DNA of 64,000 nucleotides from a phage. The stretch lies in the sequence record PZ386974.1. One strand, 5' to 3'. Each line of letters begins with the position of its first letter. Position 1 is the stretch's first letter. Of the stretch, positions 1,465 to 51,391 are shown piece by piece. The notes under the pieces were generated by a model that worked only from the letters and a program-made list of their open reading frames with translations, searched no databases and was not told the DNA's origin. Position numbers and translations under genes: made by a program.

Positions 1465-1493
1465 ATAATAACATAACCTGTACCAAAGTAAAC
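1465..1493 (-). promoter_or_regulatory. sigma70-type early promoter (-35 GTTTAC, 17-bp spacer, -10 TATTAT)
   Basis: Read on minus strand: GTTTAC at 1493..1488, TATTAT at 1470..1465, followed by conserved AGACCT box; embedded in inverted repeat ggtacagg/cctgtacc. Confidence 0.5.
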
Positions 1494-1497
1494 TGTT

Positions 1498-1866
1498 TTA
1501 TGCAACTTTAATCCAATTGTCTAAATTTAAAACACCTTTGGCTTTCATTTTTTCGATCAGGTTATCTGCTGTAATGCGTCCATTTTGATACCATGTAACA
1601 TCTTCAGAGTAACCAGTTTCTTCGTCAACATATGTTTCTGAACGAATTTTACCGGTAATAATAGTTTTTAATTCGTATGTGTCACCTGTGAAAAAGTTTG
1701 CTAACACAATTTTCCAAGAGAAATCATCTGAAGGACCTTCAGGGGTCATACAACTTACGATCTCAAATTGCTCTTTGTATAACATCCACTGGAATTCTTT
1801 AATTTCGATAGCTTTATAACCATCGTGGTCTTTACATTTGATGTATGAGTTCAGATTGATTTTCAT
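1498..1866 (-). CDS. hypothetical protein (122 aa)
   Basis: ORF track; ATG start. Confidence 0.55.
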   Translation of the reverse strand: MKINLNSYIKCKDHDGYKAIEIKEFQWMLYKEQFEIVSCMTPEGPSDDFSWKIVLANFFTGDTYELKTIITGKIRSETYVDEETGYSEDVTWYQNGRITADNLIEKMKAKGVLNLDNWIKVA

Positions 1867-1908
1867 TTTGTTCTCCAGGTTGTTTTATTGATTAGGTGGT
1901 ACAAGTCT

Positions 1909-1937
1909 ATAGTAACACATCCTACAGGAGAGTAAAC
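1909..1937 (-). promoter_or_regulatory. sigma70-type early promoter (-35 GTTTAC, 17 bp, -10 TACTAT)
   Basis: Minus-strand GTTTAC 1937..1932 and TACTAT 1914..1909 upstream of ORF 1498..1866. Confidence 0.5.
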
Positions 1938-1973
1938 ATCTTTTTAAACTTTTTCTGCCCTAAACGCACAAAA

Positions 1974-1989
1974 GGGAGCCGAAGCTCCC
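1974..1989 (-). terminator. intrinsic terminator hairpin GGGAGC-CGAA-GCUCCC plus U-run
   Basis: 6-bp GC stem, UUCG loop on minus transcript, A4 on plus strand just left of stem (U-run on the transcript); 5 nt after stop of ORF 1995..2174. Confidence 0.6.
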
Positions 1990-1994
1990 TAAAA

Positions 1995-2174
1995 TTATGC
2001 AACAACCTTTCCAAAACGAGAAGCATCATCTCGAAGAACTGCACGTGCTCTGCGCATGATCTTCTCAACTGTTTGATTAATACGAGAGTTCGACCCACGC
2101 TTGTATCCAGCGCGTTTAGAGGTACCATCAACTTTCTTTTCAACTGCTTTCTTTGCTTTAGCTTGTTTTGCCAT
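1995..2174 (-). CDS. small basic protein (59 aa, Lys/Arg-rich)
   Basis: Own translation: MAKQAKAKKAVEKKVDGTSKRAGYKRGSNSRINQTVEKIMRRARAVLRDDASRFGKVVA; ATG start, terminator immediately downstream; below ORF-track size cutoff. Confidence 0.4.
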   Translation of the reverse strand: MAKQAKAKKAVEKKVDGTSKRAGYKRGSNSRINQTVEKIMRRARAVLRDDASRFGKVVA

Positions 2175-2469
2175 TATAAATTCTCTTTAAATGAAAATGC
2201 AGGACTTATTGACATTGCCTGCGCAAGTCCTCAAGGGGAACATAGGTTTTGGATATTTAACGACAGGATAACCATAAACCCGTCATCATACCACCCACGA
2301 CTTAGACAGATAACCTTTTTCTGACGCGTGATAGTATAAAATACATTCAAGAGGTACACCGTAAAACTGCCGGGGTCTTAAAACTATAATGATTCGCAAA
2401 TCATTAATCAGACAGTTCGACGGCTCCTCGATTTTCTAGCCGCACTTAAGGTAGCGAATCACCTAAAAC

Positions 2470-2718
2470 TTATTTAAGGGTGATAACAAAATGACGTACT
2501 GCTTTACGAGCTGCAGAAGCCAAAGGCTTAGCGTATTTCAGTTCATCTTTTGCTTCCAGTTCAGAAGCCAAAGCTGCCTGTACCGGGTTCAGATGTTTGA
2601 AATATCGCAGGATTTCAAGAGCTTCGGCTTCAACATCAATAGATGCGCCATAGTTTTCGTGGCCGTTATTCCATGCGTTTCGTTGCAGTTCAAGAGCGTG
2701 TTGTAATTGTTTAATCAT
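2470..2718 (-). CDS. rIII: rIII-like lysis-inhibition accessory protein (82 aa)
   Basis: 82-aa ORF beside gene 31 on the same strand; size and position match T4 rIII as recalled. Confidence 0.5.
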   Translation of the reverse strand: MIKQLQHALELQRNAWNNGHENYGASIDVEAEALEILRYFKHLNPVQAALASELEAKDELKYAKPLASAARKAVRHFVITLK

Positions 2719-2834
2719 TTTAAATTCTCAATTCGAGATAATATTTAGTAGCCACGTTCGTCTGAATTTCACTTCCTTTCGACAAGTCTCTCAGTTGTAG
2801 GCTACCGCTTAGAAGAGTGTTCTCTTCATATAGT

Positions 2835-2842
2835 TATTTATA
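2835..2842 (-). promoter_or_regulatory. possible late promoter (TATAAATA on minus strand)
   Basis: Exact TATAAATA octamer just 3' of gene 31 stop, 117 nt upstream of the rIII ATG. Confidence 0.3.
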
Positions 2843-3175
2843 TCACTTATAAAGACACGGAATAGCTTTATAGTGGCATGTTACGAATTTCTGTTTAATT
2901 TCTTTAGGATGTTTAAGTCCCAAAGCCACAAATGGATGTGGAACATTTCGAATTTGTCCAACTGGTAGTGGAGTCAAATCACCGACTTCAACAAAACCTT
3001 CAGGAACATCAGGACCTACAGAATGAACTACACATAGTTCAGGAACTTCACCTTGAACACGTTTACCAATCACAAGTCCTGATTCGGTAACTTCTTCATC
3101 ACCTGCTTGAGCGGGTTCAGAAACCAGAATGACATATTCACCAACAGCACGAATTGGGAGTTGTACTTCAGACAT
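2843..3175 (-). CDS. 31: co-chaperonin gp31 (GroES analogue)
   Basis: 110-aa [31 protein letters not shown]..., near-identical to T4 gp31 as recalled; ATG start. Confidence 0.9.
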
Positions 3176-3232
3176 CTTATTTCCTTGTTGTTTGACGATA
3201 GATTAATAATACCATACTATTCGTAAAGCATA

Positions 3233-3541
3233 TTACATAAGAAGCAAACGTTCTACTGGAGTACCATCAACCGAAATTACTTTATCAAGGCGGAAAGAAC
3301 GCCACTGACCTAACTCGGTATCGAATGCTCGAACTGATTCACGAGGTTCAGAACGAACTTCTGTTGATGGGTTACTATTTTCATATTTGACTTCAAGTTC
3401 ATCGCGGGAGGCAAACATCGTACGAACATCACCGTTAGCCTTTTCAAATACAACACAATGAACGCCTACAGACAGAATAGTTTTAATACGTTCACGAAGA
3501 ACCATAGTTTCTCGTTCAGTTAAAATCATATTATTCACCAC
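3233..3541 (-). CDS. hypothetical protein (102 aa)
   Basis: ORF track; lies between cd and 31. Confidence 0.5.
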   Translation of the reverse strand: MVNNMILTERETMVLRERIKTILSVGVHCVVFEKANGDVRTMFASRDELEVKYENSNPSTEVRSEPRESVRAFDTELGQWRSFRLDKVISVDGTPVERLLLM

Positions 3542-4112
3542 AAAAGTTTCGGATTTGTTCCCAATTCAGAGAACGAAGATTATTACGAGAGTACTGAATT
3601 ACTTCAATACCGGCTTGTTTTAGAATTTCGGCCCAATTTTCAGGAGATCTGTCATATAATTCCGCGTATACAACCTTTTTAATACCTGACTGCGTAATAG
3701 CTTTAGTGCAATCAGGACACGGAGAAAGCGTAGTATATAACGTAGCACCTTCAATAGAATTACCTTTACGAGCTGCAAACAAAATTGCGTTCAGTTCCGC
3801 ATGGATTTCGTTATTAGCAGACCATGCACTATGAGCGGCCCGATGTTCTTTAGCCAAAACAAAATTATCCACCCGTCCAAATGCTGTAGTGCCTTCTTTA
3901 TGCCCAGCAACGATGACCGGGCTTGGTTTATTCTTCAACCAACCGTTTTCGGATGCATGTTCGCAACAGTTTGTACCACCTGAAGGAGAGCCATTATAAC
4001 CTGTAGAAATAATGCGTCCATCCTTTTCAATGACGGCACCAACTTTCCATGAACAACATTTTGATTCTTGAGAAATCAGATATGCAATCTGAAGGTATGT
4101 GCTAGCTTTCAT
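3531..4112 (-). CDS. cd: dCMP deaminase
   Basis: 193 aa; zinc-binding HAE and PCxxC motifs (HAELNAI...SPCPDC); size matches T4 Cd; ATG overlaps upstream stop (TAATG). Confidence 0.9.
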   Translation of the reverse strand: MKASTYLQIAYLISQESKCCSWKVGAVIEKDGRIISTGYNGSPSGGTNCCEHASENGWLKNKPSPVIVAGHKEGTTAFGRVDNFVLAKEHRAAHSAWSANNEIHAELNAILFAARKGNSIEGATLYTTLSPCPDCTKAITQSGIKKVVYAELYDRSPENWAEILKQAGIEVIQYSRNNLRSLNWEQIRNFCGE

Positions 4113-5104: not shown

Positions 5105-5225
5105 AACAATCCTTAGGAGATATAAACAGATTCTGATTCAACAATACCTTTAACCGGACCACGCCAGGCTAAGTTGGTAGTGCTCAGATTTATGACCATT
5201 CTCGATAGTAATGAGATAGCTCTCA

Positions 5226-5462: not shown

Positions 5463-5523
5463 TCTGTTTTCCTCATTGTGTTGGTAGAGTTATAGTATCA
5501 CAACTCTACCATGTTGTAAACCA

Positions 5524-5799: not shown

Positions 5800-5806
5800 A
5801 ATTACC

Positions 5807-6202: not shown

Positions 6203-6203
<1 letters not shown>
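6012..6203 (-). CDS. hypothetical protein (63 aa)
   Basis: ORF track; start overlaps pseT stop. Confidence 0.45.
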
Positions 6204-7289
<1,086 letters not shown>

Positions 7290-7589: not shown

Positions 7590-7617
7590 TTAGATTTCCT
7601 CAATTATCCATAGGAGC

Positions 7618-7647
7618 ATTATACTCTGCTCCCGAGAGTTTGTAAAC
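7618..7647 (-). promoter_or_regulatory. sigma70-type early promoter (-35 GTTTAC, 18 bp, -10 TATAAT)
   Basis: Minus strand GTTTAC 7647..7642 and TATAAT 7623..7618; the -10 sits in the loop of inverted repeat ggagca/tgctcc. Confidence 0.55.
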
Positions 7648-7871
7648 TATTTTACTAAAGATTCAATATACTCATGAAGAGCTTTAGTCGCTACTGCCCA
7701 CTTATTCTGATATTCATTTTTCAGATTAGCACGAGACTGAACTAACAAGCGATCATTAGTCGGAGGCAAAGATTCTAATCGTTGAATCTGGCGTCCATAA
7801 ATCATAGCCGCCATTTCAGATTCATAGATAAGCCCTTTAATGTATTCATGCTGTTCTTTAGTCATTGGCAT
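7647..7871 (-). CDS. hypothetical protein (74 aa)
   Basis: ORF track. Confidence 0.45.
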   Translation of the reverse strand: MPMTKEQHEYIKGLIYESEMAAMIYGRQIQRLESLPPTNDRLLVQSRANLKNEYQNKWAVATKALHEYIESLVK

Positions 7872-8993: not shown

Positions 8994-9023
8994 AATTTTC
9001 TCCTCGTGTTGTTGATAAAAGCC

Positions 9024-9053
9024 ATAGTAACACCTTCCTTGGTGTTTGTAAAC
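9024..9053 (-). promoter_or_regulatory. sigma70-type early promoter (-35 GTTTAC, 18 bp, -10 TACTAT)
   Basis: Minus strand GTTTAC 9053..9048, TACTAT 9029..9024, upstream of the alc-like gene. Confidence 0.45.
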
Positions 9054-10189: not shown

Positions 10190-10205
10190 TCAGTTAGTTT
10201 TTTAA

Positions 10206-10235
10206 ATTGTACCACAATCCTTGTGGTATGTAAAC
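10206..10235 (-). promoter_or_regulatory. sigma70-type promoter (-35 GTTTAC, 18 bp, -10 TACAAT)
   Basis: Minus strand GTTTAC 10235..10230, TACAAT 10211..10206, upstream of rnlA; spacer contains palindrome ccacaa/ttgtgg. Confidence 0.45.
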
Positions 10236-10645
10236 TACTTTTTCTTATGTTGGATATTCCAAGGCGGGTTGAACTTTTTGATAAAAAGTGGTTCTTCAAG
10301 GTCCATTGTTGCGATGGTCATTGAACCAAGTTCGTTGGTGACTGAAAGGTCAAAACATTGGCGGGCCCAGAATTCAACCTTTTTGCCTTGCATTAAGGCA
10401 TCCAAAATCATAAGTGATTTTCTTGAATCTGAAGTCTGGTCTTTTCGATTTATGGCTGTTCGATAATAGTTAATGCGTTTCTTTAAATTCTTGGTTTTAC
10501 CAATATACACAAGTTCGTCATCTATAGCAATAGCGTATATGACATTTTTCTTATTAGGGACATCAACTGTTTTAATTGTTGCATCTTCTAATAGCTCCAA
10601 TTCTGTATATTTAATAAAGGAATATTCGGCGGCAATATCTTTCAT
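10235..10645 (-). CDS. denA: endonuclease II (GIY-YIG family)
   Basis: 136 aa; VIYAIAIDDELVYIGKTKNLKKRINYY GIY-YIG core; length and sequence match T4 DenA. Confidence 0.88.
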   Translation of the reverse strand: MKDIAAEYSFIKYTELELLEDATIKTVDVPNKKNVIYAIAIDDELVYIGKTKNLKKRINYYRTAINRKDQTSDSRKSLMILDALMQGKKVEFWARQCFDLSVTNELGSMTIATMDLEEPLFIKKFNPPWNIQHKKK

Positions 10646-14156: not shown

Positions 14157-14243
14157 ATATTCCTCAGTATAGGTTGATAGACATTACTCCAAACGGGATA
14201 GTATTTATCCCGTTAATTTATTATACACCTTTAAACTGAAGCG

Positions 14244-14498
14244 TTAATTATCCTTAGCAATAATTTCTTCGTATTCTTTAGGTGTCAAGACTGTGATATT
14301 GAAATAAACCAACGGTTCTTTTTCCATACCGAATCCACCACAGAATTCACGATATTCATAAATTCGTTCATGTGAATAACAAATGAATCGTTCACCTTTA
14401 ACTGTGATTTCACTATTTGGTGAAGGGATATCCAGTTCACTTGGATTTTTCATTTCAAAAATTGTGGTGCCATATGAATTAATAAAACGTAAAATCAT
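14244..14498 (-). CDS. hypothetical protein (84 aa)
   Basis: ORF track; between nrdA and td. Confidence 0.5.
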   Translation of the reverse strand: MILRFINSYGTTIFEMKNPSELDIPSPNSEITVKGERFICYSHERIYEYREFCGGFGMEKEPLVYFNITVLTPKEYEEIIAKDN

Positions 14499-16436: not shown

Positions 16437-16498
16437 TTTATTCTCCTTCACTTTTGATTTGATAGGGCTACTATAACATAACCCTATCTGATTGTATA

Positions 16499-16903
16499 CT
16501 ACTTTTTAAAAGTTTTTTGCAAAAGTTTGATGATTTCGTCGACGTTGGTTTCATCTACGATACAATGGATTTTTGTTACACCTAAAGTTATACCTTCGTT
16601 AGTAGGTTGAGGCTTTACTAAATCTACCTCAGTAAAGTACTCAATAAAGTATTTGAACTCGTCAGGATAAATCTCAAAATAAGTTTCAATTTCACCACCG
16701 GCAGAACATACAGTACCATCTTCCATAGTTACACTTACTACGTTTGACGTATCGCTATCATAATCAGGTTCCATTCCGTTTACAACAAAACTAGGCCCGT
16801 GGAGTTCAATCAATTTTAACATCTTAGCGTTATTATGTGGTGCTTCTTGAACAAAGTCGTCTTTAAATAAAGGGTTAATGATATAAGATTTTCCGATTTC
16901 CAT
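16499..16903 (-). CDS. hypothetical protein (134 aa)
   Basis: ORF track; ATG start; promoter upstream. Confidence 0.5.
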   Translation of the reverse strand: MEIGKSYIINPLFKDDFVQEAPHNNAKMLKLIELHGPSFVVNGMEPDYDSDTSNVVSVTMEDGTVCSAGGEIETYFEIYPDEFKYFIEYFTEVDLVKPQPTNEGITLGVTKIHCIVDETNVDEIIKLLQKTFKK

Positions 16904-16932
16904 TTTGATTTCCTCATGTTGTTGATATGACT

Positions 16933-16961
16933 ATACTAACACATCTAGTGAAGAAGTAAAC
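16933..16961 (-). promoter_or_regulatory. sigma70-type early promoter (-35 GTTTAC, 17 bp, -10 TAGTAT)
   Basis: Minus strand GTTTAC 16961..16956 and TAGTAT 16938..16933, between gene 32 terminator and next ORF. Confidence 0.45.
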
Positions 16962-20198: not shown

Positions 20199-20230
20199 AT
20201 GAACCTCTTGTTCAGTTAGTCAACTTGTCT

Positions 20231-20260
20231 ATAGTAACACACTCATTTGAAAGCGTAAAC
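20231..20260 (-). promoter_or_regulatory. sigma70-type promoter for rnh (-35 GTTTAC, 18 bp, -10 TACTAT)
   Basis: Minus strand GTTTAC 20260..20255, TACTAT 20236..20231, about 33 nt upstream of the rnh ATG. Confidence 0.5.
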
Positions 20261-20301: not shown

Positions 20302-23300
20302 ATGGCCGACATCAAACGTAAGTTCAGAGCCGAAGACGGTCTGGACGCCGGTGGCGACAAGATTGTTAACGTAGCATTAGCCGACCGTACAGTAGGTACT
20401 GATGGCGTAAACGTTGACTTCCTGGTACAAGAAAACACCGTTCAAGTATATGATTCTACGCGTGGATATAACAAAGGATTTGTTGTTCTTTATGACAACC
20501 GTTTATATCAAGCAATAAATGATATCGTGTCTCCTTCCGGGGCATTTAACCTTTTACAATGGCGTGCAGTTCGTACCGATGCACAATGGATAACTGTAGC
20601 TTCTGGGACTTATCAACTTTCTTCAGGTGAATCGATTTCGGTTAACACCAGTGCCGGCAATGATATGGTTTTCACGTTGCCAAATGCGCCGGTTGATGGT
20701 GACACTATTGTTTTGGCTGATATTGGTGGAAGAACCGGGGCAGTTAAAGTACAGATTAACGCGTCTGTGCAGAGTATTTTAAACTTTAGAGGCGAACAAG
20801 TTCGTACAGTTTTAATGACGCGTCCGCGTTCACAACTAGTGTTTGTGTTTAGTAATCGTTTGTGGCAGATGTATATCATTGATTACGGTAAAGAATCAAT
20901 CACTGTTACACCTGCTACACCATATCAAGCGCAAGCAAACGATTTTATTGTTCTTCGTTTTACTAGTGCAGCACCAATCAACATTACACTTCCACGTAAT
21001 GCTAACAATGGTGATATAATCAGCCTAGTTGATTTAGATAAATTAAACCCACTGTATCATACGATTATTAAAACATTTGATGATACAACGTCTATTGGCG
21101 AAGTCGGGACTCATATCGTCGAAGGTAGAACTTCTTCTGACGCGTTTTTTGTTTTTGATGCTGCAAATAGTTTATGGCGTATATGGGAAGGCGACCAGAA
21201 ATCACGTCTTCGTATTATCCGTACAGATTCAAATATTCGCCCAAATGAAGAAGTTCTTATTTTTGGTACAAATAACGCTACAGCAGAAACTATTAACCTT
21301 ACGCTTCCTACAGGAATTTTGACCGGTGACACTGTTAAAATTTCAATGAACTACATGCGTAAAGGCCAAACAGTAAAAATTAAAGCTGCCGAAGGTGATA
21401 CAATTGCTTCTTCTGTCGCATTACTTCAGTTCCCTAAACGTTCTGAATATCCACCTGATACTCAATGGGTCTCTGTTACTGAACTAGAATTCAATGGCAC
21501 TACTTCATATGTTCCTGTATTAGAATTAGCGTATATCGAAGACACCGATTCTGACACTCATTATTGGGTTGTGCAACAGAATGTCCCTACAGTAGAACGT
21601 GTTGATGCCGGAACTGATGCTACACGAGCTCGTTTAGGTGTTATTGCTCTTGCTACTCAAGCGCAAGCAAATGCTGATTTAGAGAATACTCCAGCTAAAG
21701 AAGTGGCTATTACTCCTGAAACGTTGGCAAATCGTACAGCAACTGAAGCTCGACGTGGTATCGCTAAAATTGCTACAACAGCACAAGTTAACCAGAATTC
21801 CACAGCATCATTTGTGGACGATACTGTTGTTACGCCTAAAAAACTAAATGAGCGTACAGCAACTGAAACTCGTCGTGGTCTTGCTGAAATTGCTACTCAG
21901 ACTGAAACCGATGCTGGTCTTGATGACACAACGATTATTACACCTAAGAAATTGCAGGCACGTCAGGGTTCTGAAACACTATCTGGTATAGTTAAATATG
22001 TATCAACTACTTCTGCTACTCCGGCTGCATCTCGTGGAGCTGCAGGCACTAATGTTTATAATAAAGACACAACCACGTTAACTATTTCTCCTAAAGCCCT
22101 TGACCAATATAAAGCAACTTATGCTCAACAAGGTGCAGTAATTTTAGCTGTTGATAGTGAAGTAATTGCTGGTCAATCACAAGCAGGTTATTCTCATGCT
22201 GTAGTAACTCCTGAAACACTACATAAGAAAACTTCTACTGATGGACGTATTGGTTTAATTGAAATTGCTACGCAAGCAGAAACTAATGCTGGGACTGATT
22301 ATACGCGGGCAGTAACGCCTAAGACGTTAAATGATAGGAAAGCTACGGAAGGATTATCCGGCATAGCCGAACTTGCTACGCAAGTTGAATTTGATACTGG
22401 AACTGATGATACTCGTATCTCGACTCCACTGAAAATTAAAACTCATTTTGATTCTTCTGACCGTACCAGTGTTAATTCTGATTCCGGACTTATTGAAGAA
22501 GGAACCTTGTGGAACCATTATACTCTTGATATTTCTAAAGCAAATGAAACACAACGTGGTACACTTCGCGTAGCGACTCAGGCAGAATCTAATGCAGGAA
22601 CTTTAGATGATGTTCTTATTACTCCTAAAAAGCTTTTAGGGACTAAGTCCACTGAAACGTCTGAAGGTGTAATTAAGGTTGCTACTCGGGCTGAAACTGT
22701 AACAGGAACTTCTGCTAATACTGCTGTATCGCCTAAGAATTTAAAATGGATTGTCCAGAATGAACCAACATGGGCTGCTACTACGGCAATTCGTGGATTC
22801 GTTAAAACTTCATCCGGTTCTATTACATTCGTTGGTAATGATACAGTTGGTTCAACACAACCTTTAGAATCATATGAGAAAAATAGTTATGCGGTATCAC
22901 CATATGAATTAAACCGTGTACTTGCTAACTATTTGCCATTAAAAGCAAAAGCTGCTGACTCAAATTTATTAGATGGCCTAGATTCATCTCAGTTCATTCG
23001 TAGGGACATTGCACAGACGGTTAATGGTTCACTAACCTTAACCCAACAAACGAATCTGAGTGCCCCTCTTGTATCATCTAGTACTGCTACGTTTGGTGGT
23101 TCAGTTTCGGCAAATAGTACATTAACTATTTCTAATACTGGAACGGCAACTCGTCTGATTTTTGAGAAAGGACCTCAAACTGGAACTAACCCAGTGCAGA
23201 CGATGACTATCAGAGTTTGGGGAAATCAGTTTGGTGGCGGTTCAGATACAACACGTTCTACTGTATTTGAGGTTGGTGATGAAACATCTAATCACTTTTA

Positions 23301-26049: not shown

Positions 26050-29000
26050 ATGGCTACATTAAAACAGATACAATTTAAAAGAAGCAAAGTAGCAGGAGTT
26101 AATCCTACTGCAGCACAATTAGCCGAAGGCGAATTAGCGATAAACTTAAAAGATCGAACTCTTTTTACTAAAGATGACCTCGGTAATATTATTAGCCTAG
26201 GCTTTGCTAAGGGTGGGGATATTAACGGTAATGTAACTCAAAATGGTGATTATTTACAAAACGGCACATTTAACCTCAATGGAAATCAGTTTGTTTATGC
26301 AGGAAAATACATTGAATTTTTACCTAAAACCACTGGAAATGGCGCTTGGGCTAACCAACATTCGAATAAAGCCCCTATCTTTACAGATTTGAGTTCAACT
26401 ACTTCTATTTCAGAATACCACCCTTTGATTAAACAACGCTATAAAGATGGAACTTTTTCTGCTGGTACATTAGTAAACGAAGGTAGTTTTAAATTCCATT
26501 ATATTGATGAAACCGGGACTTCAAAATACTGGACTTTTAATCGAAACGGTAATTTTCAAGTTGATTCTGGAAGTTTATTAGTATCTAATGGATATTTAGT
26601 TACTCAAAGTAATATTGAAACTAAAGCTGGTTCTTTAATTGGTCCTAAAGTTATTACCAAAAATATCAATGTGAGCACTAAATCTTGGGGCACTAATATT
26701 GATACTGCATATGATTTAGTTTCATTACCGACTTGGCACTATACTCCAACCGAAACAGATTTGGATACTAATGGTATAAACTACCTTCGTAAATTCCGCG
26801 GACATGTTTCTTCTGCTATTTTCCATGAAGTTGCTGATGCTCGTTCAGGTAAACCACAGAATATTTCGTATTGGACGGGACGTAATGCTGAAGTTTATCA
26901 ATGGTCTTATACCACAGATGGGCGTATGTCTGTTGCTAATTCGATAGGTATAGGTCTTGCTGATGTTGGTGACCAAGGACGTTATCCATTGGTTTCGTTT
27001 GGTAAAGGTATTGCAATTGGTGACAATGATACTGGTATTAAATGGGTTCGTGACGGGGTTATCGATTTAGTTGCGAATGGTATTTCTGCCGGCACTATTC
27101 TTAATAACGGCATTAACAGTACTAAAAAATTGATGGTTGGTTATAGTCGAGATTCTGGTTCTACTTGGGATTACCCAAATAACAACCAAGCAATGTTTAC
27201 TGCGCGTACCGATGTTGATGGTAATAATAACGGTGACGGTCAGACTCATATTGGTTATAGCAGCAATGCCAAGATGTATCACTATTTCCGTGGCACTGGT
27301 CGTATGTCCGTTAGTATGGGCGATGGACTTCTTGTTGAGCCTGGCATTTTAGATATTAAAACTGGTTCAAATTCGTTAAATTTGCGTGCTGATGGTACCA
27401 TCGCTTCCGTTCAAACGTTAAAACTTAATAATGGATTATATTTTAATGGCGATGGAACTAATGCTTCTCTAGTTTTTAAAGCAGCTTCAGGTATTGATGG
27501 CACTAAGCAAATCATGTGGGAAGGCGGTACTCGAGCAGGTCAGAATAAGAGTTATGTAACGGCTAAAGCATGGGGTAATTCATTTAATGCCACTGGTGAT
27601 AAATCTCGTGAAACTGTATTTGAAGTTAGTGACGGGCATGGATACCATTTTTATTCTCAACGTGTAGCTCCTGCGCCTGGTTCTACCGTCGGACCTATTC
27701 AATTTCGAGTTAATGGTGGTTTATTAACTTCAGGTAGTATTGTTACTTCTGGTTCTATTACAACTGAATCTTCTTTAAGTGTTAATAATGGCATGTCAGT
27801 AAATGGACAAGCTAAATTCGGTGGAACTGCTGATGCATTAAGAATTTGGAATGCTGAATACGGTGCTATTTTCCGTCGTTCAGAGGCGGCATTGCATATT
27901 ATTCCAACTCCTAAAGATGCAGGTGAATCTGGCGGAATAAGTAATCTTCGCCCATTAAGTATCAGCCTTAATAATGGTATGGTGCAAATGCGTCATTCTG
28001 TCACGTTAGGTGACGATGGTGCTGGCGGTAATATGATTACAGTGGACAATGATAACAAACTTGTTGTTGTTACTAGTAATAGTCGCATTTCTCCTAATTT
28101 CAGAATGCAGATAGGTCAGTCGGCATACATTGATGCAGAATGTACTGATAGAGCACGTCCGGCCGGAGCGGGTTCTTTTGCTTCCCAAAATAATGAAAAT
28201 GTACGTGCGCCGTTCTATATGAATATTGATAGAACTGATACTAGTACATATGTTCCTATTTTGAAACAACGATATGTTCAAGGAAATAGCTGTTATTCTT
28301 TAGGAACTCTAATTAATGGTGGTAACTTTAGAGTTCATTATCATGAAGGTGGTGATAATGATTCGACGGGCCCTTTAATTAAGGACTTCGGGTGGGAATT
28401 CAATAGAACCGGTGATTTTATTTCCCCTGGTAAATTAGGCGCTGGTACGGTTCGTATTGGTACTGACGGTAACATCACAGGTGGTTCTGGTAATTTTGCC
28501 AACTTAAATAGTACAATTGAATCACTTAAAACTGATATTGTCTCAAGTTATCCAATTGGTGCTCCGATTCCATGGCCTACTGATACACCTCCTGAAGGTT
28601 ATGCCATAATGGAAGGTCAAACATTTGATGCTGGCTTGTATCCTAAGTTAGCTGCGGTGTATCCTTCCGGCTCTCTGCCTGATATGCGTGGTCAAACTAT
28701 CAAGGGTAAACCATCTGGGCGTGCTGTATTGAGTACAGAAGCAGACGGTGTTAAGTCACATAGCCATAGTGCAAGTGCATCAAGCACAGATTTGGGTACT
28801 AAGACCACTTCTAGTTTTGATTACGGTAGCAAAACGACTTCAAGCTTTGATTATGGTACTAAGACCAGTAATACCACTGGCAACCATAACCATACAGTGA
28901 GTGGTAATACTAGTTCCGCAGGAGCTCACCACCACGCGCGTTCAGGTCCTCAGGTACAAGGCGGCATACCCACTAGCGTATTCTATGATGGATACAATAG

Positions 29001-30828: not shown

Positions 30829-30874
30829 AACGTTTTATTCATTCCACTTAGTTGATATGGATATAGTACCATTA

Positions 30875-31036
30875 TCAGTGTTGATTGTAAACGGCTTTTT
30901 CTACGCTTTTAACGTAATTGGTATAGTCTTCCTGTTCGTACGAGTGTAAGGCTAAGAACAGAGCTAATAATTCATTATAGACTAAAGCCTCACGCTCACG
31001 TTCGGCCTCTACTACGTTCTGAAGATTATGACTCAT
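30875..31036 (-). CDS. hypothetical small protein (53 aa from ATG 31036; 71 aa if track start 31090 is used)
   Basis: ORF track; SD AAGGA precedes the ATG at 31036. Confidence 0.35.
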   Translation of the reverse strand: MSHNLQNVVEAEREREALVYNELLALFLALHSYEQEDYTNYVKSVEKAVYNQH

Positions 31037-32689: not shown

Positions 32690-33322
32690 TCACAGTACGT
32701 TAGTTACAAGGGTAATGATTTCTTTGGACACATTAGGGAAGTCAATGTAAGTATATTTACCACCGATCTTAATCTTAACATCATTTTCAAGAGAAGTAAA
32801 CAGCTTTGATTCAGTTTCTGACATGTTGTATGCAAAGATTCTAAGAGAACCATCTCGACGAATTTCGATCTGACGAATACCTAGAACTCGTTTAGCGAAT
32901 CGAACTTCTAAGTTACTACGGTTTTCACCAATTTCTTTAACTTCAACTTTATCTTTAATATTTTCAAAAACAAAGTTTGCTAATTCATGCATTTCAGGAG
33001 TAACTCCACGTGCTTTTCTAGTGTTACGTTTCTGAAGAAGTTCTGGAGCATTTTCTTGGGCAAAGAGGTCTGCAGCTTTTTGGATAATATCCATTGCTTC
33101 GCCTGTTGCTACAAGTCCATCACCGGATTTTTCGACTAAACCTTTCTTAATCAATACACCAATGTTAGAGTTAACAACCGATGCATTGTATTCTGCTTCC
33201 AGAGCTTCACGGACATTGGCAGCAGTGGTGAAGTTGTTCTTAATGATATAAACCATTATTGCAGCAGTTTTTTCATTCAGAGCGTTTTCAGAAGCTTTGA
33301 TGATGTAAGTAACTTTAGACAT
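32690..33322 (-). CDS. motA: middle-transcription activator MotA
   Basis: 210 aa; collinear with T4 MotA as recalled (MSKVTYIIKAS..., VLIKKGLVEKSGDGL); ATG start. Confidence 0.85.
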   Translation of the reverse strand: MSKVTYIIKASENALNEKTAAIMVYIIKNNFTTAANVREALEAEYNASVVNSNIGVLIKKGLVEKSGDGLVATGEAMDIIQKAADLFAQENAPELLQKRNTRKARGVTPEMHELANFVFENIKDKVEVKEIGENRSNLEVRFAKRVLGIRQIEIRRDGSLRIFAYNMSETESKLFTSLENDVKIKIGGKYTYIDFPNVSKEIITLVTNVL

Positions 33323-33361
33323 TTTATTTCTCCAATTTGGGTGTTTTGTTTTGATAGGTCT

Positions 33362-33390
33362 ATACTATCATGTTTGAAGCAAAAGTAAAC
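33362..33390 (-). promoter_or_regulatory. sigma70-type early promoter for motA (-35 GTTTAC, 17 bp, -10 TAGTAT)
   Basis: Minus strand GTTTAC 33390..33385, TAGTAT 33367..33362; part of a 78-bp element duplicated at 33635..33712. Confidence 0.5.
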
Positions 33391-33427
33391 TTTATTTTGG
33401 GCTCTTTTTCAAAAGCCCTGGTAAAAT

Positions 33428-33643
33428 TTACAAACTCATTTCTTTAATAAGGCTAATAAGTTTTGCCTTTTTAGAACGAAGCTTTTCTAAATGATGTCCA
33501 TTTGAACCGCGAACCACTAAAGAATTGATTTCAACTTCTAAGAAATTTAATTCTTCAACAAGTGCTTTACGTGGAGCATTCATACCAGGTTTAACTTTAC
33601 CGAAACGAGTAGTTGTGTTTTGGGTTAATTTCATTTTAGACAT
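33428..33643 (-). CDS. hypothetical protein (71 aa, basic)
   Basis: ORF track; ATG start; shares promoter/leader/first three codons (MSK) with motA. Confidence 0.5.
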   Translation of the reverse strand: MSKMKLTQNTTTRFGKVKPGMNAPRKALVEELNFLEVEINSLVVRGSNGHHLEKLRSKKAKLISLIKEMSL

Positions 33644-33682
33644 TTTATTTCTCCAATTTGGTTGTTTTGTTTTGATAGGTCT

Positions 33683-33711
33683 ATACTATCATGTTTGAAG
33701 CAAAAGTAAAC
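33683..33711 (-). promoter_or_regulatory. sigma70-type early promoter (duplicate of the motA promoter)
   Basis: Minus strand GTTTAC 33711..33706, TAGTAT 33688..33683. Confidence 0.5.
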
Positions 33712-33736
33712 TGTTTTGTGAGAAAAATGCACAAAA

Positions 33737-33752
33737 GGGAGCCGAAGCTCCC
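33737..33752 (-). terminator. intrinsic terminator GGGAGC-CGAA-GCUCCC plus U-run
   Basis: Downstream of gene 52 stop; A4 on plus strand left of stem gives the U-run on the transcript. Confidence 0.6.
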
Positions 33753-33828
33753 TAATCATGTTTGTCCAACCAATACAGCCAAATCACTAGTACAGCTATT
33801 GCACCGAGAAATCCTAAGGCTAGGGCAC

Positions 33829-35944: not shown

Positions 35945-35988
35945 GCTAATTTCCTCAATTGATTAATGTTTTTGTAATCCATGAGAGC

Positions 35989-36018
35989 ATTATACTCTGC
36001 TCTCAAGAGTTTGTACAA
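35989..36018 (-). promoter_or_regulatory. sigma70-type early promoter for ndd (-35 TTGTAC, 18 bp, -10 TATAAT)
   Basis: Near-identical to the 7618..7647 element including hairpin gagagca/tgctctc around the -10. Confidence 0.5.
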
Positions 36019-36020
36019 TT

Positions 36021-36221: not shown

Positions 36222-36471
36222 TTTGTGTTCCTCGTGTTTCAGTAGGACTACTATACCATAATCCTACCTTGATGTAAACAATTAAATTACATTAAAATAT
36301 GTTAAAGCCAACCATGTTCCAGTGAACGAACATGCGATGTAAAAACCCGTATCACAAATTGTTCTTAGTACAATAAGAAGTGCATTTTTCATAAGTACCT
36401 CAATACAATTGAAAATATTATACAAATCATAGGGATACTAAGCAACCATATTCCGATCCACATTTTAGAGC

Positions 36472-36735: not shown

Positions 36736-36803
36736 GATGTTATCCTCTTTTAGATAGGACTACTATATCATAGTCCTACTTAGTTGTAAACACTTTTATG
36801 AAA

Positions 36804-45357: not shown

Positions 45358-45385
45358 AATATTCTCCTCTTGTTTTGATAGGTCT

Positions 45386-45414
45386 ATAGTATCATAGGCC
45401 ATAGTTGTTGTACA
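45386..45414 (-). promoter_or_regulatory. sigma70-type early promoter (-35 TGTACA, 17 bp, -10 TACTAT)
   Basis: Carries the conserved TACTATAGACCTATCAA box seen at other early promoters. Confidence 0.4.
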
Positions 45415-45939
45415 TCATTTTAGCAAAATAAAATCAACTTGTTCTGCCAATGAACGTCTAAACATTAATTGACAACTTCCGAGGATGAAATCAGGTGCTT
45501 CATAGACAGCGATGTAGTATCCTTTAGCTTTCAAGAGTTCAACATCCACCTGGTCATCAAACCATGCATAAACCGCGTCAACACTTTCAAATCCAAAATA
45601 GAACCCTTGAGCCCAATCTTCACTCAATTCAAATGTGTGCTCAATTCTATGGTATCTTAAGATATTTTGTTCAAGGAGTTTGTCTTCATTTACTGTAGGA
45701 CGATTAGGGACATTATAGTTGTCGCCGTGATGGTAGAAGTTACCTGAGATTATTCCGTGTTTATCAAGGAACTCCCATGTTTCTTCAGAGTTGTCGGTGC
45801 CAGACCAACCGTATGGCGAGCGAGGTTCTTTATTCCAAGAGGTTTCCCAAATTCTGACGGCTTTACCGTCTTCGATAGCAATTCCTGGTAATGATTCACG
45901 TTGAGTACAAAAACTACGTTCTACGCGGTAAACTAACAT
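45415..45939 (-). CDS. hypothetical protein (174 aa)
   Basis: ORF track. Confidence 0.5.
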   Translation of the reverse strand: MLVYRVERSFCTQRESLPGIAIEDGKAVRIWETSWNKEPRSPYGWSGTDNSEETWEFLDKHGIISGNFYHHGDNYNVPNRPTVNEDKLLEQNILRYHRIEHTFELSEDWAQGFYFGFESVDAVYAWFDDQVDVELLKAKGYYIAVYEAPDFILGSCQLMFRRSLAEQVDFILLK

Positions 45940-45998
45940 ATTATTCTCCTCTGGTTGATAGGTCTATAATACCAAAACCAGAGGAGAAGTAAACAACT

Positions 45999-46892: not shown

Positions 46893-46954
46893 ATTTTTTC
46901 TCTCTTTGTTTAAATTGAATTCATTATACTCCATCCATCCTTGGATGTACAACA

Positions 46955-47449: not shown

Positions 47450-47515
47450 AATGTTTTTCCTGTTTGGTTAAGATAGAAAGATTATACTCCAACCATCCTT
47501 GGTTGTAAACTGATT

Positions 47516-48193: not shown

Positions 48194-48202
48194 AATTTTC
48201 TC

Positions 48203-49516
48203 TCAAATAAAATGGACGTCAAACCGGCCACGAGTTGTGCCGACATACAATAACTGTTTAGCTAATTCCGAATCAGCATAATGGATACACGGTGTATAAA
48301 CAAAGGCCGTGTCAACAGACATACCCTGGGCCTTATGGAAGGTTGATACTGGTAGTGCCTTCACCTTAGTGAACATACGTTTAGCATCCCAGAATTCGCT
48401 CCATGGAGCTTTACCACCTTTATTCCAGAATTTGTATGTTTCTGCGGCCTTAGCCAAAAACAAATTGAATTTATAAAGCTCTTCTTCTGAAGAAATAACC
48501 TTTATATCTTCGCGGATGTATTCTTCATCATCCCCATATGTTTCTACTGTAAGATTCCAGTATCGTATCATATATTCGCCTGAAACACCACGTGCTTTAA
48601 CGAATGTAGACGTTTCTACAGCATCTCGAATACGAACGAATTGCCCGTTATTGAAAAGCATTTCGGTCATATTTTTACAATCTAGCTTATATGTCTTAGT
48701 AAATGGCTCTTGTAGAACAATGACTTCGTCTTTAATAAATGGTTTTTCTGTTTCAAGAAGTTTTCGGCGAATAATTGAATTTAACTTGTCCACCGACTTA
48801 TTTGTGAATGCCATCATTCGATTTTCGAAAAGGTCTTCAGGAGTTTTAACGACATTAAAATAGTTCGTCATATACGATTTAAGGTCTGTATATCCATGAA
48901 CACCATGCCCGTCAACTACTTTATCGTAAATCCATTTGCCATTACGAATATCAGTCGCAACATCAATAATTGGTGCATTGCTACGTTTAACTTCTGTAAG
49001 GTTGCATTGCACGAAGTCTTTGTGAGTGAAGAAAGGACTTAGATACGCAGTTGATTCGCCTGGATCTACCGGACGAATCTGGCATCGGTCGCCGATTCCA
49101 ATTACTGTACACCATTTAGGGATACTAGCTAACATTATTTTAAACAGAGAACGGTCGCACATTGACGCTTCATCAAATAACAGTACACGACACAAGGCTA
49201 AGTCGGGAACCTTTTTCTGTTCAAACAATACGTTTTCTTCGTATGTAGTTGGGTTGATTTTAAGAATGCTATGAATAGTCGATGCTTCTTGACCAGCAAG
49301 TTTGCTTAGAACCTTTTTAGCAGCATGTGTAGGGGCTGCTAAAATAATGCCTGATTCTCCGGCAGAAATAAGAGCTTCAACGATGAATCTAGTAAGGGTT
49401 GTTTTACCTGTACCAGCAGGCCCATTAATAGTTACGTGATGTTTCTTTTCTTTAATAGCTTTCATAACAACGTTGAAGGCGTTTTTCTGGCCTTCAGTCA
49501 AATCATCAAATGTCAT
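48203..49516 (-). CDS. dda: Dda DNA helicase (SF1B)
   Basis: 437 aa; Walker A GPAGTGKTT, Walker B LFDEASM; collinear with T4 Dda as recalled. Confidence 0.92.
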   Translation of the reverse strand: MTFDDLTEGQKNAFNVVMKAIKEKKHHVTINGPAGTGKTTLTRFIVEALISAGESGIILAAPTHAAKKVLSKLAGQEASTIHSILKINPTTYEENVLFEQKKVPDLALCRVLLFDEASMCDRSLFKIMLASIPKWCTVIGIGDRCQIRPVDPGESTAYLSPFFTHKDFVQCNLTEVKRSNAPIIDVATDIRNGKWIYDKVVDGHGVHGYTDLKSYMTNYFNVVKTPEDLFENRMMAFTNKSVDKLNSIIRRKLLETEKPFIKDEVIVLQEPFTKTYKLDCKNMTEMLFNNGQFVRIRDAVETSTFVKARGVSGEYMIRYWNLTVETYGDDEEYIREDIKVISSEEELYKFNLFLAKAAETYKFWNKGGKAPWSEFWDAKRMFTKVKALPVSTFHKAQGMSVDTAFVYTPCIHYADSELAKQLLYVGTTRGRFDVHFI

Positions 49517-49824
49517 CGTAAAGTCCCTGCAATTGGAATACTAACAATACGGCCTGTGTCCAGGATTCGTTGATACAATCTTTGCGTCTCCGCATCTAGT
49601 TTAATGTGTTTCATTTCGAGCTTATTAAACCAGAACTTACGCGGAGTTTCGACCATTCTTAGAACTCCCATTTTTAAATCTGTTTTATACTGTGTTTTCA
49701 AAGTATCGAAAACTTTATCTGCAATATCCTTTCTAAAAAATACTGCAGGACGATGCTCATCAAGTGGAACCGGGACAGTAAATCCTTCCATATCTCGATA
49801 AACTATTGCATATACATAAACCAT
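49513..49824 (-). CDS. hypothetical protein (103 aa)
   Basis: ORF track; ATGA overlap with dda. Confidence 0.5.
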   Translation of the reverse strand: MVYVYAIVYRDMEGFTVPVPLDEHRPAVFFRKDIADKVFDTLKTQYKTDLKMGVLRMVETPRKFWFNKLEMKHIKLDAETQRLYQRILDTGRIVSIPIAGTLR

Positions 49825-49826
49825 AA

Positions 49827-50573
49827 TTAACCTTTAATCAGTTGGAATAATGATGCGCTAAGTGGTAGGCCACGTTTCAATTTTAATTTACCAATGAAAC
49901 CAATCTTTTCAAAACGTTGCAGACCTTGGATAACTTTATCATATGTATCGAAAAGCGATTCAGCGTCAGTTAATTTAGTTTTAGTTTTCCAGTCAGAGCC
50001 TTTAAGAAGAACATTGAGTTTAGTAAGTTCATGGCCTTCTGCTTGATGTGAGCCATTAATGCGTGCTTTCAAAGCAACAATTCTAAGTTTAGATTCGTTA
50101 GATAAAGGTTGATTTTTCATCATGTTCGCCATATGCTTAACACGATTTTCACGTTTTGCTCGGATTTTTAAAATAGTGCCATAAACCTTTTTAATTTGGG
50201 CCCATTTCTTCTCGTCGAGATTAAGTTTCTCTACTTTACGGGCAGAAGGATTAGCGATACGTCTTGCAATGGCATCACGTTTCTCAATAAGTTCTTCTAA
50301 TGTTAAATCAGAACGAGCCGTGTTATATTTTTTCTTAACTGGGATGACATTACCTTTAATGTAGCCTATATCATTATTAAAACGTTCTAAGGATAATTTC
50401 TCACCTTCAACAGAGTTATTAAAAGATTCACCTGAGTAAGCGCAGACCTTTTGATCAAGAATGTTTTTAAGGTAATTAAAGTCTAAGTTAAAATCCTTAG
50501 AGCGTCTCTTCGCAGAAGCTCTGGTGTGGTCAAGACGACGATTGATTTTGTTAATTTTATTATTTGATAACAT
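49827..50573 (-). CDS. srd: Srd-like protein
   Basis: 248 aa basic protein between dda and the mod genes; size and position match T4 Srd; homology not verified. Confidence 0.5.
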   Translation of the reverse strand: MLSNNKINKINRRLDHTRASAKRRSKDFNLDFNYLKNILDQKVCAYSGESFNNSVEGEKLSLERFNNDIGYIKGNVIPVKKKYNTARSDLTLEELIEKRDAIARRIANPSARKVEKLNLDEKKWAQIKKVYGTILKIRAKRENRVKHMANMMKNQPLSNESKLRIVALKARINGSHQAEGHELTKLNVLLKGSDWKTKTKLTDAESLFDTYDKVIQGLQRFEKIGFIGKLKLKRGLPLSASLFQLIKG

Positions 50574-50725
50574 AATATTTTCCTCTGTCTTACGGACGTT
50601 AGGTCATTTAGCTGATAGGTCTATAATATCATGCCCTCAGGTAGTGTACACTCTTTTTTCGTAAAATGCTTTAATTTTTTATGTGTTATAATGGTTCTGA
50701 GTTCCATCCGGTTATTCCAATCCAG

Positions 50726-51334
50726 TCAGTAACTGACAATAGACAGATTCCAAATTGTATAACGTCCATCTTGAATAATAGAATCTACACGCAGTGTAGT
50801 CCCTATAGGGAGCATAAATTCACATTCGTCAGATATAAGTCTAGCATTAGACCGTCTTGTCGCTTCAGGGAAAGCTCCATTGAACTCACAAGATGGCGCA
50901 GCCAGAATCATGTTAAGCATATGTTCACGGAAGTTGAAAGCAAATGATGCATCTTTGATGCAGAACATATTAAATGTTCCATAAAAATTATATGAAGCGA
51001 AGTTACGTGCTACACCAAACACCGGACTAAAGCTCATTACTCTGTCAAATTTAATAATACTACCAATGCCTTTATCATCAAGTGTGGCCATAGTTTTCTT
51101 AGAGATTCCACGATACATTGTCTCAGGAACAGAAGACGTCCAATTTCTACGAACGATTGAACTTAACTCCTGTTGAATACAGTCTGGCTTGTTTTCCATA
51201 CACTGCCAAAGGATGCTTTGTTCATTATCGTTGAATTGACTATCAATTTCGTACTGCAATACATCTTGATATTCGGGGTTTTGAGCACGACGAACCATTT
51301 CTTCAATTTCACACTCGTTATACGGCATAAACAT
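50726..51334 (-). CDS. modA: ADP-ribosyltransferase (ModA-like)
   Basis: 202 aa; R-S-ExE signature (YRG..., SFS, ECE); paralog of the next gene; A/B assignment by order only. Confidence 0.6.
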   Translation of the reverse strand: MFMPYNECEIEEMVRRAQNPEYQDVLQYEIDSQFNDNEQSILWQCMENKPDCIQQELSSIVRRNWTSSVPETMYRGISKKTMATLDDKGIGSIIKFDRVMSFSPVFGVARNFASYNFYGTFNMFCIKDASFAFNFREHMLNMILAAPSCEFNGAFPEATRRSNARLISDECEFMLPIGTTLRVDSIIQDGRYTIWNLSIVSY

Positions 51335-51362
51335 TTAGGTTTCTCCTCTGGTTGATAGGTCT

Positions 51363-51391
51363 ATAGTATCATCGTCCTTGTTGTTTGTACA
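51363..51391 (-). promoter_or_regulatory. sigma70-type early promoter (-35 TGTACA, 17 bp, -10 TACTAT)
   Basis: Conserved TACTATAGACCTATCAACC box directly upstream of the modA-like SD/ATG. Confidence 0.45.

Follow-up and report, generated by a model that had tools for sequence, protein, structure and literature searches.

Early promoter modules of an RB69-like phage: a conserved block past the −10 hexamer and hairpins around it

What in the early promoters of a T4-type phage is conserved beyond the two sigma70 hexamers, and does that conservation amount to an extra layer of recognition or regulation? The question is raised by a 64,000-nucleotide (nt) stretch of phage DNA (sequence record PZ386974.1), which was analysed at its full length and is called the window below. 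A preliminary description had proposed leftward promoters at positions 1465–51391 that share −35 and −10 hexamers, a conserved block past the −10 hexamer, and −10 hexamers embedded in local palindromes. Our best explanation, which we hold with a probability of roughly 0.75, is that these modules are sigma70-dependent early promoters of a T4-type (RB69-like, Mosigvirus) phage, carried in compact cassettes, with block and hairpins accounted for as set out below. The extended conservation has three separable sources: known RNA polymerase contact regions, homogenisation of cassettes, and inverted repeats that covary.

The window contains 29 leftward modules, all on the early-gene strand, and the family reaches outside the segment first described, to 378 on one side and to 52001–59109 on the other (modules are named as in Table 1). 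From 5′ to 3′ a module is laid out as an A-rich UP element, a −35 hexamer (GTTTAC or TGTACA), a spacer of 17–18 nt, TGn, a −10 hexamer TAnnnT, the block, a short A/C-rich leader, a Shine-Dalgarno sequence (SD) and the ATG. Promoter and ribosome-binding site (RBS) are thereby contained in one compact unit of ~90 bp, and the distance from −10 to ATG is 25–34 nt in most modules. Column counts were made on a hand-curated set of 28 promoters, that is, the 29 modules minus one near-duplicate copy. The modules show the hallmark of T4-type early promoters, GTTTAC(A/T) at 17–18 nt from a −10 TAnnnT. The extended −10 is represented by T−15 and G−14 (22/28 each), and the UP element at −40 to −44 by an A in 24/28 at the position 4 nt before GTTTAC, with five positions there purely A/T.

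Because the −35/spacer/−10 pattern was the search criterion itself, it is circular as a means of counting, and independent support comes from strand bias and the placement of SD and ATG. A regular expression independent of the block (−35-like hexamer, 16–19 nt, TAnnnT, with SD and ATG required downstream) recovered 31 sites on the − strand vs 1 on the + strand. A generic sigma70 scan of the window showed no enrichment (65 matches vs 53.8 ± 8.4 in shuffles); only the T4-type pattern was informative. Downstream of the modules lie co-oriented orthologues of early genes (motA, asiA, motB, srd, modA/B, ndd, imm, sp, alc, rnlA, cef and frd.1), and 5 of the 28 downstream open reading frames (ORFs) have no T4 homologue. 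An unbiased repeat search returned the cassettes as the largest dispersed repeat families of the window (D1, D2, D3, D6, D8, D13). The leftward family with shared hexamers is thus borne out by its number and its strand bias, and it has rightly been assigned to a T4-like phage's early promoters of sigma70 type. On the + strand, mirror pseudo-promoters of the form TTATAC-N18/19-TAAACT occur at 379–409, 7619–7648, 10207–10236, 35990–36019 and 47482–47511; these are probably a pattern artefact, since TATAAT and GTTTAC, read as reverse complements, look like weak −35 and −10 boxes.

The block directly 3′ of the −10 hexamer has the consensus AGACCTATCAA, spans −6 to +5 and has an information content of ~5–6 bits. 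Allowing at most one mismatch, AGACCTATCAA occurred nine times in the window, always on the − strand, where 1.4 occurrences were expected and none of 100 shuffles reached nine. At up to two mismatches and directly 3′ of a −10 hexamer there were 11 copies, nine within 1465..51391 and two beyond, at 57352 and 58665. The 11 columns after the −10 in the block-independent set total 5.01 bits, vs 0.08 ± 0.21 bits for 11-mers following random TAnnnT, with a highest value of 1.06 among 5000 draws. The richest columns were C−3 (21/28), T−1 (23/28) and A+1 (23/28), followed by T+2, C+3 and A+5. The claimed conservation past the −10 therefore stood when it was checked against the AT-rich background. Indeed, since the informative C residues are rare bases here, the block is the opposite of an AT-bias artefact.

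From −6 to +5 the block takes in the discriminator with its G at −5, two C-rich positions (−3/−2), a T−1/A+1 start site and the first transcribed bases (AUCAA). The numbering rests on analogy: the T4 early promoter Pe133295 is annotated as starting at the A in CTCTACC, seven nt past its −10, and +1 of the window modules would likewise lie 7 nt past the −10. A G two bases 3′ of the −10, together with a pyrimidine/purine step at −1/+1, 7 nt past the −10, fits start-site choice and contacts of sigma region 1.2. We count G at −5, the C-rich −3/−2 and T−1/A+1, like the UP element at −40 to −44 and TGn, among the known contact regions of RNA polymerase. Because the block spans the discriminator, start site and first transcribed bases, we consider it part of the extended early-promoter consensus, which may help early promoters to outcompete those of the host.

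Comparison with T4 separated an older core from its local version. T4 early promoters (Pe) are known to combine UP, −35, TGn and −10 elements with further consensus regions (Hinton 2010, PMC2988021). They resemble the modules in UP element, GTTTAC, TGn and −10, in the early genes served, and in the −6..+6 register, hairpin classes and TATAGT/ACTAT sub-family described below. They differ in the block, which is AGACCTATCAA here and ACAACTATCAAC or TACCCTATCAAC in T4, and in G at −5 and C at −3, which are enriched here and not in T4. The window has six exact copies of AGACCTATCAA and 129 kb of T4 has one, and ACAACTATCAA occurred six times in T4 and not once here. A core CTATCAAC is nevertheless common to both, although its flanks differ; in T4 its register is −6..+6, as A..(A/C)CTATCAAC. 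As part of our best explanation, the exact 11-mer is a genome-specific version kept uniform through recombination or duplication among cassettes, since the existence of genome-specific versions implies homogenisation within each genome. The cassette type GGGACC-agagTATAAT-GGTCCC stands at motB in T4, but at ndd and an unrelated ORF here, and orthologous genes in T4 and the window often have different cassette types. We concluded that the block looks conserved in part because mobile promoter cassettes have evolved in concert, on top of a functional core that is older.

For RB69, of the same genus, the text of Nolan 2006 (PMC1524935) predicts 57 early promoters and its supplementary list holds 58 sites, among them counterparts of two of our modules (Table 1). 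An A-rich −40..−44 and a preference for C at −3..−1 are described there; the 51-nt model ends at about the start site and leaves TCAA(C) at +2..+6 outside. A term search of that paper's main text found no palindromes and no link to the SD in its promoter description.

The second sub-family of the preliminary description, with TATAAT in the loop of an inverted repeat at 7618–7647 and 35989–36018, is as claimed, and turned out to belong to a larger class of hairpins. Each spacer was paired with its own downstream region and compared with the downstream regions of other promoters. Own duplexes averaged −9.46 kcal/mol vs −6.62 ± 0.43 for permuted partners, and none of 20,000 permutations was as good; the T4 promoters likewise gave 0/20,000. 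The palindromes around the −10 are therefore not due to chance. Single hairpins reached z scores of −2.9 to −6.3 against dinucleotide shuffles, and Rfam returned no match at gathering thresholds. About 17 of the 29 modules have a stem-loop within or next to the promoter, if three classes and upstream terminators are taken together.

In class I (57363, 36762, 36250, 35989, 16470, 7618, 5492 and 1465) the stem begins exactly at −17 and −6, the hexamer and four bases of the TGn region form the loop, and the −6..+3 block serves as 3′ arm. At least five consecutive pairs in this fixed register were found in 8/28 window promoters and in 6/33 T4 promoters (a set to which the cd.2 promoter Pe133295 was added by hand), where mismatched partners would give ~3%. 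The fraction of paired cells in this register over all window promoters was modestly above a column-shuffle null (326/5000); because the signal is bimodal, run length is the better measure. Four of the 28 promoters (57363, 36762, 36250 and 16470) have the −10 variant TATAGT, with G at −8, and in all four ACTAT or a G·U variant of it (ATTAT, GTTAT) at −21..−17 pairs with the ATAGT of the hexamer, lengthening the class I stem into the −10. This sub-family is also present in T4 (L056 20583 and L057 7961), where three other TATAGT promoters lack such pairing.

In class II (58676 and 45966, with 59109 and 16933 as weak members) the SD region is paired with pyrimidine-rich sequence in the 5′ half of the spacer, at −21 to −23 kcal/mol in 58676 and 45966. 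Class III (47481, 46923, 378, 9024 and 10206), identified by sequence reading and the duplex test, has a small hairpin inside the spacer with a conserved SD-like AGGA in the loop (CCA-AGGA-TGG) and covarying stems (AACCA/TGGTT, ATCCA/TGGAT, CCACAA/TTGTGG, ACACC/GGTGT). T4 has this AGGA-loop type at two promoters (CCACA-AGGA-TGTGG). Finally, canonical terminators stand just 5′ of the −35 at 53481, 1909 and 33683, with a weaker form at 59109. One of them, GGGAGC-TTCG-GCTCCC followed by TTTTG at 33714–33755, has a copy at 1951–1992 that is 86% identical over 42 nt; the copies lie ~15 nt before the −35 boxes of the unrelated promoters 33683 and 1909, with which they form terminator-plus-promoter composites.

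The arms of the stems vary among promoters while their complementarity is kept (GGTACAGGT, GGTAGAGTT, TAGGACT, GAGAGC), which argues for a hairpin in nucleic acid rather than the site of a single DNA-binding protein. At orthologous promoters in other T4-like phages the −10-spanning hairpin is kept with changed sequence, register and wobble pairs. Upstream of frd.1 orthologues it reads AGGCTAT...ATAGCCT, or GGGGCTAT...ATGGTCCC with two sense-strand G·U pairs, and upstream of orthologues of the ORF served by 58676 it reads GGGAC...GTCCC or GGGGCT...AGTCCC. The T4 orthologue of 5492 differs by a G·U-to-A-U change; a search for related loci with a cd.2-like ORF gave two loci only. In the T4 stems, 27 G·U pairs fall in the sense strand vs 5 in the antisense strand, and the sense RNA folds better (p = 0.0005).

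Transcription from the promoter itself would start 3′ of the 5′ arm, so that a hairpin cannot form in the promoter's own transcript, only in RNA read through from upstream. We propose that the read-through RNA of an upstream promoter would form the hairpin and that locally initiated RNA would not; action on read-through RNA is most likely, and the physiological roles that follow are what we infer from it. In 58676, 45966 and 52001, and weakly in 59109, where the 3′ arm is the RBS, read-through RNA would be masked and locally started RNA open. The predicted probability that the RBS is unpaired agrees with this: 0.63 in the own transcript vs 0.20 in read-through RNA for 58676, 0.61 vs 0.19 for 52001, a similar change (~0.6 vs ~0.2) for 45966, and partial masking for 59109. 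In class I read-through RNA the RBS is unusually open (0.73–0.82 vs 0.43–0.53 in chimeras), because the spacer is locked in its own hairpin. Class I would thus place a hairpin just 5′ of an open RBS, most plausibly as an intercistronic insulator, stabiliser or attenuator, and the intercistronic structure of class III may serve likewise.

Two known arrangements resemble these modules. In T4 the genes e, soc, 49, I-TevI and segB have a promoter inside an RBS-sequestering hairpin (Edgell 2010, PMC2988022). The likeness lies in 58676, 45966 and 52001 (weakly 59109), where the 3′ arm is SD/AUG, the 5′ arm is upstream of the start, and masking is predicted; class II hairpins may be the early-promoter version of this device. 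The internal promoter is late in the T4 genes (TATAAATA, gp55), whereas here it is sigma70-type with a −35 and precedes early-gene orthologues. Only 3–4 of the 29 modules are concerned and their effect is predicted, and we regard them as working alike without being members of that group.

The second arrangement is the PeSL (promoter-early stem-loop cassette), an AT-rich region followed by a sigma70-like promoter, a stem-loop, an SD and an ATG, which has been proposed to mediate modular shuffling; its stem-loops lie between −35 and −10, overlap the −10, or lie upstream of the −35, in RB49/phi1, PST/T4 and nt-1/KVP40 (Arbiol 2010, PMC2839356; Comeau 2014, PMC4122927). These positions correspond to class III, class I and the upstream terminators of the window, whose cassettes are also repeated and stand in tandem around small ORFs. 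The modules have both the promoter with AT-rich upstream region and SD/ATG in a ~100-bp cassette and a stable stem-loop. They differ in that RB49 stems are rich in G4...C4 and those of the window are not; RB69 is unmentioned in the 2010 paper (PMC2839356). Against the relative vB_EQ1 (PQ516281.1), one of three breakpoints adjoins a module, so that the association of PeSL with indels is weakly seen, on three breakpoints only. At window position ~58154 vB_EQ1 has an extra 204 nt, inserted past the end of the preceding gene and directly before the A/T-rich UP element of promoter 58104; it brings an ORF of ~70 amino acids with an SD, but no promoter. Separately, a direct repeat of 86 nt (33314–33399 and 33635–33720, 95% identical, 321 nt apart) doubles promoter, leader and first codons (MSK) before motA and a 71-amino-acid ORF, and the PeSL papers state that such an arrangement can excise the intervening ORF as a mini-circle.

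Several observations weigh against our explanation or narrow it. A promoter needs neither block nor hairpin: about half of them lack the full block, and in ~12 of the 29 modules no hairpin is significant. The core recognition element prefers G at +2. The block has T there, and RNA polymerase contacts are a weak account of +2..+5. The sense/antisense comparison was neutral in the window (11 vs 14 G·U pairs, p = 0.7), where stems are nearly all Watson-Crick, and the case for action in RNA draws on T4 and a few orthologues. Promoter activity, start sites and read-through are what we infer for this phage. RBS masking was rejected as a function of the whole family, since native read-through RNA was 0.50 unpaired vs 0.49 with chimeric and 0.51 with shuffled upstream sequence; the spacer-RBS duplex over the family had a mean z of −0.6 (p = 0.10). 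Lastly, because the hairpins have no U-tract, the terminator role measured for one RB49 PeSL is not simply transferable to them.

Among the alternatives, one that retains a minor chance is that duplication, gene conversion and recombination of cassettes (shuffling of the PeSL type) left block and palindromes behind as passive by-products, without function beyond that of an ordinary strong promoter. Much in the window agrees with such a history, namely the genome-specific block versions, the tandem duplication of an 86-nt cassette, dispersed repeat families of 54–58 nt with 60–85% identity, and cassette types that sit at non-orthologous genes in T4 and here. Simple copying, however, predicts neither the covariation of stems at paralogous and orthologous sites, G·U-to-A-U changes and their reverse included, nor inverted repeats in a fixed register around the −10, and the core CTATCAAC is common to T4 and the window in spite of unlike flanks.

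We consider it comparably improbable that the −10-spanning stem-loops are terminators or attenuators insulating cassettes from upstream transcription, a role that has been suggested, and in part measured, for the RB49/phi1 PeSLs. There, the PeSL211/210 stem-loop cut downstream lacZ about as much as rrnB T1, and stem-loops overlapping the −10 are a common subclass (PMC2839356). In the window the reading as intrinsic terminators found no support: class I and II hairpins have no T-run, none of the −10-spanning stems has one 3′ of it, and the terminator scan called none of them. Moreover, the canonical terminators stand apart, just 5′ of some −35 boxes, and AT content is higher in these stems than in the G4/C4 stems of RB49.

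It is very unlikely that the inverted repeats act as DNA, either as a cruciform or single-strand hairpin presenting the extended −10 to sigma70 or as dimeric operators for a phage regulator such as an early shut-off factor. The fixed register, the loop of exactly N4 plus the hexamer that is the extended −10, the mostly perfect Watson-Crick stems (which allow pairing in DNA) and an early shut-off mechanism reported as not understood would all suit this idea. Yet stems of 5–10 bp with 10-nt loops are poor cruciform formers. The reading as a protein-dimer operator was rejected because half-sites differ among promoters, the sense-strand G·U bias in T4 and the orthologues indicates RNA, and the fixed register also has a simple explanation, namely that bases of the extended −10 are unavailable for pairing. 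A related long shot is that the block is the recognition target of the early shut-off mechanism of T4-type early promoters, possibly with the fixed-register hairpin framing the extended −10. The block versions (AGACC... here, ACAAC... in T4) would then reflect co-evolution with a phage factor or phage-modified RNA polymerase, an equally slight prospect to which nothing here points specifically. An origin of the block as an artefact of AT-rich background or of alignment on the −10, to which the 38% GC of the window and the unenriched sigma70 scan might lend colour, can be dismissed on the single-strand excess of matches, an information content far above the null maximum, and C residues at the most informative positions.

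We therefore return to the reading of the modules as early promoters with an extended consensus and hairpins. Of the extra recognition or regulatory layer first suggested, conservation past the hexamers and covarying hairpins stand; the layer itself resolves into known contacts, homogenisation, and hairpins for which action on read-through RNA is probable. The sequence analysis gave no evidence for a dedicated extra recognition factor, for which it could not test. Because T4 early promoters are reported to be largely AsiA-resistant (Hinton 2010, PMC2988021), transcription with and without AsiA/MotA is not a relevant test of it.

Table 1. Promoter modules and adjacent terminators in the window, with free energies and z scores of their hairpins where available
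Feature	Coordinates	Strand	Details
Module 59109	59098..59138	−	Before 124-amino-acid ORF without T4 homologue; spacer CTTCCTCT pairs with SD AGAGGAA; class II, weak; duplex z −3.7, fold z −1.8
Terminator-like hairpin GGAGAC-TTCG-GTCTCC + TTT	59143..59161	−	Directly 5′ of −35 of module 59109; sequence reading
Module 58676	58665..58704	−	Exact AGACCTATCAA block; class II; spacer TTCTCCAGTAG pairs with SD-containing CTACTGGAGAA; −21.1 kcal/mol, z −4.9
Module 58104 (imm.1-like gene)	58093..58133	−	Block CTTTCTATCAAC; no hairpin
imm promoter	57663..57703	−	No block, no hairpin
Module 57363 (sp)	57352..57392	−	Block AGTCCTATCAA; class I, −10 TATAGT in loop; z −2.9
Module 53481 (mrh.2-like)	53470..53510	−	Preceded by intrinsic terminator 53525–53546
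Intrinsic terminator AAGGAATCC-TTCG-GGATTCCTT then TTTTCGTTT	53525..53546	−	Directly 5′ of module 53481; terminator scan
Module 52001 (ADP-ribosylase, modB-like)	51961..52029	−	−10 region GTGTTATGATAGGC pairs with GGTCTATCATGAC (SD + AUG); −22.5 kcal/mol, z −5.1
Second ADP-ribosylase gene promoter	51352..51392	−	−35 GTGTAC; exact AGACCTATCAA block; no hairpin
srd promoter	50612..50651	−	−35 GTGTAC; block AGACCTATCAG
Module 47481 (motB.1-like)	47470..47510	−	TATAAT; class III spacer hairpin AACCA-AGGA-TGGTT; family D13
Module 46923 (motB)	46912..46952	−	TTGTAC/TATAAT; class III hairpin ATCCA-AGGA-TGGAT; family D13
Module 45966 (motB.2-like)	45955..45994	−	Exact block; class II, TTCTCCTCTGG pairs with CCAGAGGAGAA (SD); −23.2 kcal/mol, z −5.7; = RB69 Pe:7443
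Module 45386 (cef)	45375..45415	−	−35 ATGTAC; exact block; = RB69 Pe:6863
Module 36762	36751..36791	−	Before 87-amino-acid ORF without T4 homologue; block AGTCCTATCTA; class I, z −3.1
Module 36250 (ndd.1-like)	36239..36279	−	Class I GTAGGATT/AGTCCTAC, one G·U pair; z −3.9
Module 35989 (ndd)	35978..36018	−	Second sub-family GAGAGC-agagTATAAT-GCTCTC; family D8; z −4.0
Module 33683 (71-amino-acid ORF)	33635..33720	−	Promoter + leader + first codons; exact block; copy 2 of 86-nt direct repeat
motA promoter	33314..33399	−	Other copy of 86-nt cassette, 95% identical; exact block
Terminator GGGAGC-TTCG-GCTCCC + TTTTG	33714..33755	−	5′ of module 33683; family D19
asiA promoter	30852..30892	−	Block ATCCATATCAAC
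rnh promoter	20220..20260	−	Block AGACAAGTTGA
Module 16933 (frd.2-like)	16922..16961	−	Block AGTCATATCAA; weak spacer/SD pairing, z −1.2
Module 16470 (frd.1)	16459..16499	−	−35 GTATAC; block AGCCCTATCAA; class I ATAGGGTT/AGCCCTAT; −16.3 kcal/mol, z −6.3
Module 10206 (rnlA)	10195..10235	−	Class III CCACAA-GGA-TTGTGG
Module 9024 (alc)	9013..9053	−	Class III ACACC-AAGGAA-GGTGT; block GGCTTTTATCAAC
Module 7618	7607..7647	−	Second sub-family GGGAGC-agagTATAAT-GCTCC; family D8; z −2.9
Module 5492 (cd.2)	5481..5521	−	Class I GGTAGAGTT/AACTCTACC; orthologue of T4 Pe133295; −17.2 kcal/mol, z −5.4
Module 1909 (30.8-like)	1898..1937	−	Block AGACTTGTACC
Module 1465 (30.7)	1454..1493	−	Class I GGTACAGGT/ACCTGTACC, kept in T4; −17.9 kcal/mol, z −4.7
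Module 378 (30.5-like)	367..408	−	TATAAT; class III-like spacer ATCCA-AGGA-CGGAT

The genomic setting matches this assignment to an RB69-like phage. A 7-kb piece of the window has 97–98% identity to many RB69-like coliphages (genus Mosigvirus, family Straboviridae). According to the annotation of a collinear relative, the − strand holds T4-type early and middle gene blocks, running through cd, pseT, alc, rnlA, nrdAB, td, frd, 32-59-33, rnh, asiA, motA and 52, then ndd, rIIB/A, 39, cef, motB, dexA, dda and srd, and then two ADP-ribosylases, mrh, soc, 61, sp, imm, dmd, 41 and uvsX. The tail-fibre genes are on the + strand, and their block (20.4–30.6 kb) is free of any early-promoter module. The proximal tail-fibre gene (gp34 orthologue) contains four to five degenerate internal repeats of 44–47 nt each at 21646–22577 (+), which make up repeat families D4 and D5. 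Compared with vB_EQ1, a region between nrdA and td (14158–14251) is replaced, with ~92 nt here and ~300 nt in vB_EQ1, as is a region of the distal tail-fibre gene (26574–28548); neither adjoins a module.

The promoter class is already known, and its detailed anatomy is a modest addition. Relative to the literature compared, what appears new is the fixed −17/−6 register, the classes with opposite predicted effects on the RBS, and the RBS-sequestering hairpins at early promoters, some of which older T4 literature may already cover. Our literature search gave no relevant match for −10-spanning inverted repeats in T4 early promoters, and older T4 work, including the 1989–1994 papers of the Rueger laboratory, may describe them.

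These findings leave the current picture of T4-type transcription unchanged. The modules account for the top dispersed repeats of the window, and for the annotation of RB69-like phages they show where early transcription units lie and which start codons are the true ones. In T4 and in this phage alike, roughly one early promoter in four has its extended −10 framed by a statistically well-supported hairpin of fixed register, and RBS-sequestering hairpins surround a few early promoters, an arrangement so far described for late ones. If it is true that such hairpins restrict translation of a cistron, or its cutting by RegB, to its own early transcript, they would provide a simple cis-acting timer for early genes.

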